Assembly: GCA_902558395.1 (NCBI GenBank)
Contig: CACEDS010000002.1
Coordinates: 98,043-162,042 of the forward strand
DNA from: an uncultured SAR86 cluster bacterium
GTDB lineage: Bacteria; Pseudomonadota; Gammaproteobacteria; Magnimaribacterales; D2472
DNA: 64,000 nt
Direction of reading: 5' to 3'
Numbering within the stretch: position 1 is the stretch's first letter; each line of letters opens with the position of its first letter. The position numbers and the translations under genes were made by a program. Below the pieces are notes generated by a model. That model did no database searches. It saw only the letters and a program-made list of their open reading frames with translations, and was not told the DNA's origin. Shown here in pieces: positions 1-3,362 of this stretch.

Positions 1-1601
1 CCATAACATGTCTCTAAGGTCATTACTGCTGCTTCTCTTAAAGAATCAATTGGAGGATTTGTAACTTGGGCAAACTGCTGTCTAAAAAAATCATAAAGCT
101 GTCTATGCATTTTGCTCATTACTGCAAGAGCAGTATCGTCACCCATAGAACCAGTGCCCTCTTGAGAATCAACAGCTAAGGGCTTGATAACTGATGTTCG
201 TTCTTCTTTAAACAATAAAAATAGCTTTGAAGATTGAAGAAACTTAGATGCTTCAAATTTTTTCAGGCCAGGACCTTCGTACGAATCTAGTCTAGATTCA
301 ATATAGATTGCGTTCTCCTTAAGCCATTTTCTATACGGATATTTTTGTTTTAACTCATCATCAATGGCAGATTCGTCATAAATTCTCCCCTTAGAGGTAT
401 CTATGGCAAGCATTCCCCCAGGTGCAACTCTACCTTTTTGGACAATATTAGATTCGTTGACAGGATTTACACCCGTTTCAGATGCAATTGTAATTATATT
501 GTCTTTATCTAATTGGAATCTTGCAGGTCTCAGTCCATTTCTATCAAGAACACATAATGCCCATTTTCCATCTGCCATAACAATACCTGCTGGCCCATCC
601 CATGGCTCCATATGCATAGAGTTATATTCATGAAACCCTCTTACATCTGGATCTAAAGTTTGAATATTTTGCCATGCAGGAGGAAGCACCATTCTGATTG
701 CTCTAAAAATATCAACTCCGCCTTTTACTAAAAGCTCAATCATGTTGTCTAGTGAGGAAGAATCAGAACCAGTCTCATTAACAAGCTGTTTAAATTTCTG
801 AATTTTTGGTATGAGAGGTGTTTTAAATTTTGAAGATCTGGCTTTTACCCAATTTCTATTTCCTCGAATAGCATTTATTTCGCCATTATGTGCTAATAAT
901 CTAAATGGTTGAGCTAGATGCCATCTTGGACTTGTATTAGTAGAAAATCTTTGGTGAAAAACACATGTTGAAGCACGAAAGTTTTCCTGGTTGAGATCTA
1001 AATAAAATTCTTTAATAGCATTAGGTAACATTAAACCTTTATAAACTACTGTTTTTGATGACATGCTGCAAACATATAATTTTTCGTCATCCATATATAT
1101 TTCTTCAATATACTTTCTAGCCTGGATTAAACCGGTTTCAAAAACTTCTTGATTAAAATCTTTTTCAGTTGGTTTGATAAATAATTGAAATATCTCAGGC
1201 AAACAACTATAAGCAATTTCTCCTAAGATTTTTTCATCAACTGGAACCCTCCGATAAGCAGCAAGAGCTAGGTTTTCAGACTTAAGGATTTTTTTTATTT
1301 TAGGTAATAGTTTTGCAATATCTTGATTGTAAAAAATTTGGCCAATTGCAAAATGTTCACCAATTTCTATGTTTTGTTCTTTTAGAACAGTGTCTGCAAA
1401 AAATTTATGATCAATGTCAAAAAGAAGGCCACACCCATCACCTGTCTTACCATCAGAGCCTACCCCGCCTCTATGTGTCATGCTTATCAAAGCATCAATA
1501 GAATTAATAATAACTTTATGTGATTTTACCCCGTTAATATTTGCAATTAAGCCAAATCCACAGTTATCTTTAAATTCTTCTTTTTTAATTAATCCGGGCA
1601 T
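1..1601 (-). CDS. gltB: glutamate synthase large subunit, N-terminal ~533 codons (gene continues past the left window edge)
   Basis: This open-ended reverse-strand frame is absent from the ORF track. My translation from the ATG at complement(1599..1601) reads MPGLIKKEEFKDNCGFGLIANINGVKSHKVIINSIDALISMTHRGGVGSDGKTGDGCGLLF. Further on it reads VFHQRFSTNTSPRWHLAQPFRLLAHNGEINAIRGNRNW. These are the Ntn glutamine-amidotransferase signatures of GltB. There is no stop down to position 1. Confidence 0.9.
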   Translation of the reverse strand, partial: MPGLIKKEEFKDNCGFGLIANINGVKSHKVIINSIDALISMTHRGGVGSDGKTGDGCGLLFDIDHKFFADTVLKEQNIEIGEHFAIGQIFYNQDIAKLLPKIKKILKSENLALAAYRRVPVDEKILGEIAYSCLPEIFQLFIKPTEKDFNQEVFETGLIQARKYIEEIYMDDEKLYVCSMSSKTVVYKGLMLPNAIKEFYLDLNQENFRASTCVFHQRFSTNTSPRWHLAQPFRLLAHNGEINAIRGNRNWVKARSSKFKTPLIPKIQKFKQLVNETGSDSSSLDNMIELLVKGGVDIFRAIRMVLPPAWQNIQTLDPDVRGFHEYNSMHMEPWDGPAGIVMADGKWALCVLDRNGLRPARFQLDKDNIITIASETGVNPVNESNIVQKGRVAPGGMLAIDTSKGRIYDESAIDDELKQKYPYRKWLKENAIYIESRLDSYEGPGLKKFEASKFLQSSKLFLLFKEERTSVIKPLAVDSQEGTGSMGDDTALAVMSKMHRQLYDFFRQQFAQVTNPPIDSLREAAVMTLETCY

Positions 1602-1694
1602 ATTTTTGAGTGTGTTTAGTAAATTATATCACAAAGTTATTTCATTTAATTGTAGAAAGTGTCATACTTCGTCATACACAGCACACAATTTAAT

Positions 1695-3362
1695 ATGAAT
1701 AATAAAAATAAGCAATATAAGATTGAGAAAGGAGTTTTGTTATTTACTCAACCGAGATCTCCATATTTTTATGGCAAGTTAAGAGTAAATGGTAGGTATA
1801 TTACAAAATCATTTGCTCCTGTTGAAGATTACGATGCTGCGTTAGAGATGTTATATAAATGGAGGGAAGAAATATTTGGAGAAAACAAAAATAACTTCAA
1901 TATTGGCTCCTCTTCTAAAAACACAAACTATAGAGATGAATATTTATCTCATGAAAAACTTGATAATGATTTTCAGTTTCTTGAAGTTGGTAGATATGAC
2001 CCTGCGAAAAAAACAGCCGAAGAAAGAAAAATTAGTTTTGTTGAAATTTATGGAGAATATAATCAAGTGCAGGCTTCAAATCAGGCACATAGATGCTTAG
2101 ATTGCGGCAATCCATACTGCGAATGGAAGTGCCCTGTTCATAATTTTATTCCTGATTGGTTAAAGTTGGTTAATGAAGGAAATATTATTGAGGCAGCTGA
2201 GTTATGCCATTCAACCAATAGCTTGCCTGAAGTTTGTGGAAGAGTATGTCCACAAGACAGGTTGTGTGAAGGTGCATGCACATTAAATGATGGTTTTGGC
2301 GCTGTGACAATTGGATCAACAGAAAAGTATATTACCGAAAAAGCTTTTGAAATGGGATGGAAGCCAGATATGTCTCATAGAAAATGGACTGATAAAAAAG
2401 TTGCAATAATTGGAGCCGGTCCTGCAGGGATTGCTTGTGCAGATGTATTAACAAGATCAGGAGTTCATAGTCATGTTTTTGATAAAAATGAAGAAATTGG
2501 TGGCCTTCTTACATTTGGAATTCCTGAATTCAAATTAGAAAAATCTGTAGTTAAGAGAAGAAGAAAAATCCTTGAAGAAATGGGTGTTAAGTTCAACCTT
2601 GGCAAAGAAATTGGAAACGATATACCTTTCAAAAAAATATATGATAATTACGATGCGGTATTTTTAGCTATGGGTACATATACTTCACTTCAAGGAGGTT
2701 TTAATGGAGAAAAATTACCCCAAGTATACAAAGCAATTGATTATTTAATTTCAAATACAAAAAATTTACTCGGACTTAAACAAAAAGAAAAAGATTTCAT
2801 TGATCTAAAAGGTAAAAACGTTATCGTTCTTGGTGGTGGCGACACAGCTATGGACTGTAATAGAACTGCAATAAGACAAGGCGCTAAATCTGTTAAATGT
2901 TTATACAGAAGAGATGAATCAAATATGCCTGGTTCTAGAAGAGAAGTTCAAAATGCAAAAGAAGAAGGTGTTGAGTTTGAATTTAATATCCAGCCAATTG
3001 ATATTGTTGGAGATGATAAGGTTGAAGGTGTCAAAATTGTTAAAACACAATTAGGTGAGCCAGATCAAAATGGAAGAAGAGTCCCAATACCAATTCCAGG
3101 CTCAGAAACTATTTATGAAGCAGATGCTGTTGTAGTTGCATTTGGCTTCAGGGCAAGTCCGTCGGATTGGTTTGGTGACTTTAATATTAATACTCAAAAA
3201 AATGGACTTGTTATCGCTGAAGAGCATCAAGAATATAAATTTCAAACATCAAATAAAAAGATTTTTTCTGGTGGAGATATGGTAAGAGGTTCTGATTTAG
3301 TTGTCACAGCAATTTGGGAAGGACGTGAAGCGGCAAAAAGTATAATAGAATATGTTTCATGA
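1695..3362 (+). CDS. gltD: glutamate synthase small subunit (NADPH) carrying a ~90-100 aa N-terminal extension not found in GltD
   Basis: From about nt 1971 the protein is collinear with E. coli GltD: [111 protein letters not shown]. This covers both Cys clusters and both dinucleotide-binding motifs. The frame is open upstream to GTG 1659 and the first ATG is at 1695. There is no ATG, GTG or TTG in frame between 1851 and 1971. Confidence 0.85.

Follow-up and report, generated by a model that had tools for sequence, protein, structure and literature searches.

An integrase-derived N-terminal module fused to the glutamate synthase subunit GltD of SAR86 bacteria, and its candidate role at a divergent gltB-gltD control region

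Where the promoter of an integrase gene associated with a transfer RNA (tRNA) gene overlaps the attL arm sites, the integrase represses its own gene, and the P'1 site covers the -10 element (PMC2951348). In one such system, IntS of KplE1/CPS-53, the protein has an integrase N-domain, repeated sites lie between the tRNA gene/core and the start of int, over the promoter, and the integrase represses itself (Panis et al. 2010, PMC2951348). Here we describe a locus in a 64,000-nucleotide stretch of DNA (the window) from an uncultured SAR86 cluster bacterium, where GltD, the small subunit of glutamate synthase, carries in frame an N-terminal module homologous to the N-terminal domain of tyrosine integrases. 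The homologous SAR86 integrases are laid out like IntS: a tRNA gene, about 100 bp, two direct repeats with one inverted copy, then the ATG. Unlike IntS, gltD has a complete metabolic enzyme subunit in place of the core-binding and catalytic domains, there is no tRNA or att core near it, and its module is not a Pfam Arm-DNA-bind_3 domain, a family that IntS matches (PF13356, 2e-25).

PutA offers a second comparison: this enzyme has a DNA-binding domain at its N-terminus and represses its own gene (PMC5293562). Like trifunctional PutA, a 'trigger enzyme', the SAR86 GltD is a flavoenzyme of glutamate metabolism with a small N-terminal domain built on a beta-sheet and a divergent control region containing repeats (putA-putP in the case of PutA), and by this analogy trifunctional PutA would be the closest functional counterpart of the GltD fusion. 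The two differ in that the PutA domain is a ribbon-helix-helix, whereas that of GltD is an integrase N-domain with another origin; in that DNA binding has been demonstrated for PutA, whereas we infer it for GltD; and in that GltD is one subunit of a two-subunit enzyme.

Compared with the canonical gammaproteobacterial gltBD locus, the body of SAR86 GltD is still 66-70% identical to the Marinobacter and Pseudomonas proteins, with hemE following and aroB upstream, but gltB is inverted, the spacer is a divergent one of 93 bp, and GltD has gained 92 N-terminal residues. The AP2/integrase superfamily, lastly, holds the N-domains of lambda Int and Tn916 Int together with the AP2 factors of plants and apicomplexans, which derive from mobile-element domains. 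As in that superfamily, the GltD module is predicted to form an antiparallel basic sheet followed by one helix, and would be a mobile-element domain exapted into a host protein; unlike it, the module is modelled with four strands rather than three, and the structural matches (E 0.5-1) are not significant. Taking the sequence comparisons below together with these analogies, we think it rather probable that the GltD module is a DNA-binding autoregulator of the gltB/gltD control region.

Conservation of the GltD extension

An earlier reading of the window from its letters alone (the original prediction) had placed gltB and gltD head to head, with gltB starting at complement(1601), a control region of at most about 93 bp and a gltD frame open from 1659 with its first ATG at 1695. 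All of this held, the spacer measuring exactly 93 bp (1602-1694) and an in-frame TAG lying at 1653. Candidate in-frame starts for gltD are GTG 1659, ATG 1695, TTG 1737 and ATG 1848, the next being GTG 2067. A stop codon lies immediately 5' of the ATG equivalent to 1695 in two related loci (L002 and L005), and ATG 1695 is therefore the conserved start. The gap in in-frame starts from 1848 to 2067 means that GltD is translated with 41 extra residues or more, most probably 92, in agreement with the numbers predicted from the lack of a start between 1851 and 1971. The GltD-homologous part had been put at about 1971, and indeed begins there, because the alignment of residues 93-554 with TIGR01318 (gltD_gamma_fam) opens at model position 1 and runs to position 465 of 467 (739 bits, against a cutoff of 482.95). 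The protein also contains PF14691 (Fer4_20; 2.8e-38) and PF07992 (Pyr_redox_2; 1.8e-26). By domains and score it thus belongs to the GltD family, but the usual context of a co-directional gltB-gltD pair and a start at model position 1 is absent.

We compared the window with nine further SAR86 loci (L001-L009) obtained by a genome scan of species-representative genomes, a comparison with relatives that the original prediction had proposed. The extension, the divergent gltB and a single uninterrupted frame were present in 10 of 10 SAR86 loci, which have in common the gene order aroB (+), gltB (-), gltD (+), hemE (+); the closest of them, from SCGC AAA168-P09, encodes a GltD that is 91% identical. 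In 71 non-SAR86 loci, from Marinobacter, Pseudomonas, Acinetobacter, Cellvibrio, Halomonas and others, the tblastn match to GltD begins at SAR86 residue 69-91, that is, without the extension, and the two of these that we inspected (Marinobacter, L010, and Pseudomonas, L034) have a co-directional aroB...gltB-gltD-hemE order. The premise that gltB-gltD is normally co-directional agrees with the two inspected loci, and the premise that GltD is normally unextended with all 71. The SAR86 residues ..EKLDNDFQF align with the Pseudomonas N-terminus MAERLNNDFQF; the old N-terminus is retained, so the whole of GltD has been kept and the fusion point lies just 5' of the former gltD start. The exact window protein occurs in public collections under the sole name 'glutamate synthase small chain', and its 90%-identity cluster has 858 members; among the full-length members listed, lengths are 555-567 aa, extension included.

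The module has evolved much as the enzyme has. Over residues 4-58, the proportion of nonsynonymous differences was 0.02-0.19 against 0.46-1.0 for synonymous ones (near saturation), and the ratio of nonsynonymous to synonymous rates (dN/dS), where computable, was 0.03-0.18, similar to the GltD body. The module averages 76% identity, its residues 4-42 85% and the GltD body 83%, against 36% for linker residues 59-92, whose length varies by whole codons only. By these sequence measures the module is translated and is kept by purifying selection. An extension produced by mis-assembly, by a frameshift hiding a small open reading frame (ORF), or left behind as a functionless relic would account for the many short database entries of the module (50-160 aa), which resemble separate small ORFs, and for one locus of the PetA fusion described below (L083), where the module appears as a separate ORF. 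The short entries proved to be contig ends or frameshifted assemblies, many of them reading into GltD, and we rejected them as genuine separate ORFs; the break in L083 is a single base in an A-run, with more than 50 other contigs in frame. The open frame in ten independent genomes and in the 858-member cluster, the lack of in-frame starts between 1848 and 2067 and the low dN/dS make such an origin extremely improbable. The pattern of conservation and selection therefore speaks for neither an assembly artefact, nor a separate upstream ORF, nor a neutral relic; whole-codon variation of the linker, dN/dS and cluster size together refute these.

Integrase homology, fold and upstream repeats

We searched a library of 1.84 billion representative proteins with the 92-residue extension using phmmer. 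Most of the 32 matches in total were SAR86 GltD fragments; others were P0091 (392 aa; E 2.2e-5), P0092 (E 1.5e-4) and P0093 (E 6.8e-4). Residues 12-74 of P0091 align with the module at a pairwise BLASTP value of 1e-13, with 34% identity over 64 residues and one gap. P0091 in turn matches a PHROG integrase over residues 18-377 (E 3e-15) and resembles annotated site-specific integrases on plasmids, and PF00589 is present in many of its homologues, which number more than 170; judged by these matches, P0091 is a tyrosine integrase. The module is 21-42% identical to 23 diverse integrase N-termini, with a single one-residue gap in the alignment core, and the matched region is the N-terminal domain, ahead of the SAM-like and catalytic parts. 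In integrases of the lambda and P4 types this N-terminal position is that of the arm-site-binding domain, and the N-domains of lambda Int and Tn916 Int bind double-stranded DNA. These alignments make it safe to regard the module as a homologue of an integrase N-terminal domain.

Genes of the P0091 family adjoin tRNA-Phe, tRNA-Ile or a tRNA-His/tRNA-Lys pair. In the window, the GltD protein has no PF00589 and the closest tRNA genes are at 20809 and 38192; with GltD following the module, no PF00589 and no adjacent tRNA, the gene is therefore not an integrase, and its front end alone is integrase-derived. The integrases, of about 385 aa, form a large family in marine metagenomes whose repeat sequence varies by subfamily. 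Neither the module nor the P0200 integrase turned up in scans of IMG/VR, and tblastn of P0091 against phage genomes was equally negative, so these integrases look island-borne rather than phage-borne. There was no further copy of the module in the window or in the gltD loci.

AlphaFold2, given an alignment of 37 relatives, predicts a small domain (mean predicted local distance difference test score 87.8) with strands at residues 7-11, 14-19, 22-31 and 34-39 and a helix at 46-65, the chain from there to residue 92 being disordered. The sheet is strongly basic (9 K/R against 1 D/E; isoelectric point, pI, 10.4). Relationships to known folds were harder to establish. Arm-DNA-bind_1 and Arm-DNA-bind_3 of Pfam gave no match at E values up to 10 for the module and 20 relatives, whereas the controls IntS, IntA and lambda Int match those families at 2e-25 to 7e-33. 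With hhalign, the module aligned to IntS plus IntA in the expected register but at P 0.013 and a probability of 3%, and to lambda Int at P 0.19. Foldseek placed AP2 domains (6sy0) and Toxoplasma gondii mitoribosomal proteins among its top matches at only E 0.5-1 and template modelling scores of 0.42-0.51, and a search of a viral structure library with the module gave no match. Of 20 relatives of the module, 10 gave hits to Pfam DUF6538 below its threshold of 27 bits (best E 0.0065), and the window protein gave none. The original prediction had likened the extension to an arm-type or AP2-like DNA-binding module of integrases: the integrase homology stands, through P0091, while the models of the Pfam Arm-DNA-bind families do not match the module, and 'AP2-like fold' or 'arm-type binding' would at this point be hypotheses about it.

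A non-committal fold search is also what one might see if the module were a domain for protein-protein contact or assembly, for example one by which GltD finds GltB outside a shared operon, with the upstream repeats being tandem -10 elements inherited with an integrase promoter. The homology to a domain at the arm-binding position of integrases and the strongly basic sheet (pI 10.4) argue against such a role.

The repeats themselves lie in the gltB-gltD spacer. The original prediction had noted GTCATAC-N3-GTCATAC at about 1649-1665; the repeat exists, but about 12 bp to the right, at 1661-1677, so that the pair begins 34 nt 5' of the gltD ATG. In the other nine SAR86 loci it is found 29-43 nt 5' of the start codon, and the block TGTCATACTnnGTCATAC is the sole invariant stretch of the spacer in 10 of 10 loci, the remainder being divergent. 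The 17-mer occurs once in the 64 kb, which is not significant alone (at least one copy in 15 of 100 shuffles). The window holds no second tandem GTCATAC pair, and single copies are at chance level, hence there is no sign of a wider regulon in the window. IMG/VR contains at least 120 stretches with GTCATAC-N3-GTCATAC; none of the approximately 120 scanned encodes the module, and we therefore set them aside as chance matches. The spacer and its vicinity contain no Rfam family and no tRNA, and in a simple scan for promoters no sigma-70 site of gltD was convincing. On the gltB side, an ATTATA/ACTATA-like element is retained at the position of the candidate -10 in most SAR86 loci. The clade of L006-L008 has a spacer of only about 60-70 bp, with TATAAT 4 nt from one candidate gltB ATG.

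A similar arrangement precedes the integrase genes. We examined eight integrase loci from different subfamilies, in which the gene starts about 100 bp past a tRNA gene (Phe, Ile, a His/Lys pair, or a tRNA 3' end). Seven of the eight have two exact direct repeats of 10-11 nt, spaced at a period of 10 nt and beginning 38-42 nt 5' of the start codon, and the pair is followed by an inverted copy that ends 0-4 nt 5' of the ATG. Two examples are TATACACACA TATACACACA tgata TAGTGTGTATA aaac ATG and TTTGAACAGT TTTGAACAGT gagttat ACTGTTCAAA att ATG. In the second, read by eye, TTGAAC in the first repeat (TTTGAACAGT) resembles a -35 element and the inverted copy shares bases with a TATACT -10, which would bury the integrase promoter within the repeat sites. 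The architecture as a whole is stereotyped, with a TATACT-like -10 between the repeats and almost no leader.

The repeat sequence covaries with the subtype of the N-domain, being TATACAC for the FYGC type and TGAACA for the YWG type. The GltD module is nearest to the FYGC/TATACAC type (up to 42% identity), and the gltD repeat (GTCATACAC in most loci) and TATACAC have ATACAC in common. The matching period and position of the repeats, together with the homologous module, suggest that gltD acquired an integrase 5' cassette as a single piece. The R-x-E-Y at linker residues 80-83 (R80 and Y83 at least 90% conserved) aligns with the S-E-Y of FYGC-type integrase linkers, a sign that the capture may have taken in part of the integrase linker as well. 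Each gltD repeat reads TGtCATAC(T/A) and so resembles an extended -10, as the assembly role would have it. A generic -10, however, would not covary with the module subtype across the integrases, PetA and GltD, and a promoter alone would not usually have two -10 elements that are spaced by exactly 10 bp and stay unchanged where divergence is saturated.

Another way to view the repeats is as RNA. In the integrase genes, the second direct repeat pairs with the inverted copy in a perfect hairpin of 10 bp, which stops 0-4 nt short of the AUG, and the second repeat of gltD could fall in a short leader; the module might then bind repeats or a hairpin in the 5' leader of its own messenger RNA and regulate translation. 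The gltD gene, though, has direct repeats only and no hairpin, no RNA family was detected, and tyrosine-integrase domains at this position are known as binders of double-stranded DNA (lambda Int, Tn916 Int).

A second fusion, on PetA

Following up P0092, we came upon a second and independent case, in which a sister module, KKHIHILDGMSLYTRDKSPFYWGYLN..., is joined in frame to the Rieske iron-sulphur (Fe-S) subunit PetA in the usual rplM-rpsI-petABC context. A metagenome scan gave 56 loci, about 50 of which encode a 263-276-aa module-PetA protein bearing the CPCHGS box; named members come from SAR86 metagenome-assembled genomes (RZO24607.1). The usual PetA has about 190 aa, and the module precedes the twin-arginine translocation (Tat) signal RRKAL.

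The PetA fusion has its own conserved sites, with TTGAACA as the conserved sequence. Upstream of petA, TTGAACAC...TGTTCAAA occurs twice, once past rpsI and once overlapping the ATG, with a TATAAT box between. The conserved layout (L095-L148) covers the 170 nt before the fusion start and runs in the order rpsI stop, TTGAACAC..TGTTCAAA, about 55 nt, TGTATATAAT, about 60 nt, and TTGAACAC-N9/10-TGTTCAAA over the ATG. The integrases with the most similar N-domains (P0174 and P0206) have TTTGAACA(G/C)T repeats ending ...GTTCAAAATG, nearly identical to the petA sequence, and the petA heptamer is the repeat core of these most similar integrases (L089, L273). As the PetA module comes with its own sites, such a cassette has been captured, sites included, on at least two occasions.

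PetA also bears on the alternatives. The petA inverted repeat TTGAACAC...TGTTCAAA overlaps the AUG and, being about 80 nt downstream of the TATAAT box, is probably transcribed, which would suit RNA binding; taken with the points against it for gltD, we rate translational autoregulation as quite unlikely. A role in assembly draws support from the fact that a similar module sits on membrane-anchored PetA, where DNA binding is less obvious, and that GltD and PetA are both subunits of multi-subunit Fe-S redox complexes. In view of the homology, charge and covariation, we consider that role unlikely.

Several features of individual PetA loci deserve mention. In the clade of L116-L135, residues ~68-88 form a His-rich linker (e.g. 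DEHDHSEDHHHHKE, HEDHHHF) that is absent from other clades; it may bind metal or be mere low complexity. In L083, from a single-cell genome, the module and petA are in different frames at 6270-6310 through a one-base difference in an A-run (..GAAAAATAAATACC..), probably a sequencing error given that more than 50 other contigs are in frame. A module-FKBP fusion (P0137, L270:354-674) was known from one 765-bp contig at 1.5x coverage, and we set it aside as a probable chimera. Short low-coverage contigs likewise join the module to the C-terminus of an enolase-superfamily protein, a TatD-like protein and another sequence (P0054, P0082 and P0074, respectively); all four joins are probably assembly chimeras.

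Possible origin and role of the fusion

We propose that SAR86 gltD carries a domesticated 5' cassette of a tyrosine integrase gene from a tRNA island, a cassette that would comprise the two direct repeats of 10-bp period, the start codon, the N-terminal domain and part of the linker. The captured domain would be the one positioned in the integrase to bind 'arm-type' sites. It would have been joined in frame just 5' of the old gltD start, with complete GltD following, at one end of the inversion that turned gltB away from gltD. Of the two origins first suggested for the extension, a domain fusion or a captured integrase remnant, what survives is an integrase N-terminus captured beside an inverted gltB and maintained as a fusion; a decaying remnant does not agree with dN/dS of 0.03-0.18.

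In this proposal, the basic beta-sheet of the module would bind both invariant GTCATAC repeats, which would lie over the gltD promoter or leader and some 50 bp 5' of the promoter predicted for gltB. Because the repeats lie over a -10-like sequence and about 50 bp from the predicted gltB -10, binding could repress gltD and could also influence gltB. Through this binding GltD would act as a repressor of its own gene, with a possible effect on the level of gltB, and such control would help to balance two subunits that no longer come from one operon. If SAR86 integrase N-domains bind their repeats as in the published precedent, the autorepression loop would have been inherited ready-made. Both the DNA binding and the sign of the regulation are what we infer; the anatomy, conservation, homology and repeat geometry are as observed.

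Several results weigh against DNA-binding autoregulation. Residues 1-92 gave no match in scans of Pfam, NCBIfam and PHROG, and profile searches of PDB sequences with two module alignments returned nothing relevant. The gltD gene does not have the inverted third copy found in the integrase genes. The proposed binding of integrase N-domains to these repeats draws on position and covariation in the sequences. Since the repeats are also extended -10-like (TGtCATACT), promoter function alone could explain their conservation. Finally, a position ahead of the Tat signal anchor of PetA is an awkward place for a DNA-binding domain.

Table 1. Coordinates of the features described. Positions are those of the window unless a locus is named.
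Feature	Position	Strand	Remarks
gltB (glutamate synthase large subunit), 5' part only	1..1601	-	Start codon is the complement of 1599-1601; gene exits at the window start
gltB-gltD spacer	1602-1694		93 bp between divergent start codons
Candidate extended -10 for gltB, TGaTATAAT (perfect)	1623..1631	-	21 nt upstream of gltB ATG; predicted from sequence
Direct repeat 1, (T)GTCATAC	1660..1667	+	Putative module binding site; also extended -10-like TGtCATACT
Direct repeat 2, GTCATAC	1671..1677	+	10 nt after repeat 1; exact in 10/10 loci
gltD start codon	1695..1697	+	First ATG past in-frame TAG at 1653; conserved in SAR86
Integrase-derived N-terminal module, GltD residues 4-62	1704..1880	+	Homology, AlphaFold2, dN/dS
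Variable linker, residues 63-92	1881..1970	+	Whole-codon indels; predicted disordered; conserved R-x-E-Y at residues 80-83
Complete canonical GltD (NADPH-dependent glutamate synthase small subunit)	1971..3362	+	TIGR01318, Fer4_20, Pyr_redox_2; old N-terminus included
hemE (uroporphyrinogen decarboxylase)	3359..4396	+	Start overlaps gltD stop; gltD-hemE synteny as in other gammaproteobacteria
Integrase pre-start repeats	L082:100-156; L085:4960-5003; L089:1455-1503; L091:100-152; L271:290-339; L272:355-403; L273:195-243		
PetA fusion loci	L081:6001-6801; L083:6001-6821; L094-L149		Module at about 1501 in L094-L149

Around the fusion (Table 1), the gltB N-terminus read from the complement of 1-1601 is MPGLIKKEEFKDNCGFG..., given in translation also as MPGLIKKEEFKDNCGFGLIAN.... 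The gltD stop and the hemE start overlap as ATGA at 3359-3362, so gltD and hemE are probably co-transcribed, and control of the gltD promoter would also reach haem synthesis.

Our literature search found no paper describing the GltD fusion; a SAR86 isolate paper mentions glutamate synthase (GOGAT) as a pathway only, and database labels for the two fusions are simply GltD or PetA. The kinds of component are known: fusions of enzymes with DNA-binding domains, integrase autoregulation, and exaptation of mobile-element DNA-binding domains. Their combination is not known from earlier work, nor is the fact that it recurs, on both GltD and PetA, in a streamlined lineage that is abundant worldwide. 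With a defined domain of about 65 residues and a defined candidate operator of 17 bp, the hypothesis is open to direct test.

SAR86 are abundant marine bacteria with small, streamlined genomes, and to our knowledge little is known about how core metabolism is regulated in such cells. If our reading is correct, GltD and a cytochrome bc1 subunit that carry an integrase-derived domain and its operator would be a new case of mobile-element domain exaptation in bacteria. GltD would be a new example of a 'trigger enzyme', and its locus an example of an operon broken by inversion that regained coordinated control. More tentatively, it is possible that SAR86 has repeatedly made integrase 5' ends into a portable self-regulation cassette on Fe-S redox subunits (GltD and PetA), by which an unassembled subunit would feed back on its own promoter. 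If so, such a cassette would be a previously unrecognised form of enzyme-tethered gene regulation derived from mobile elements.

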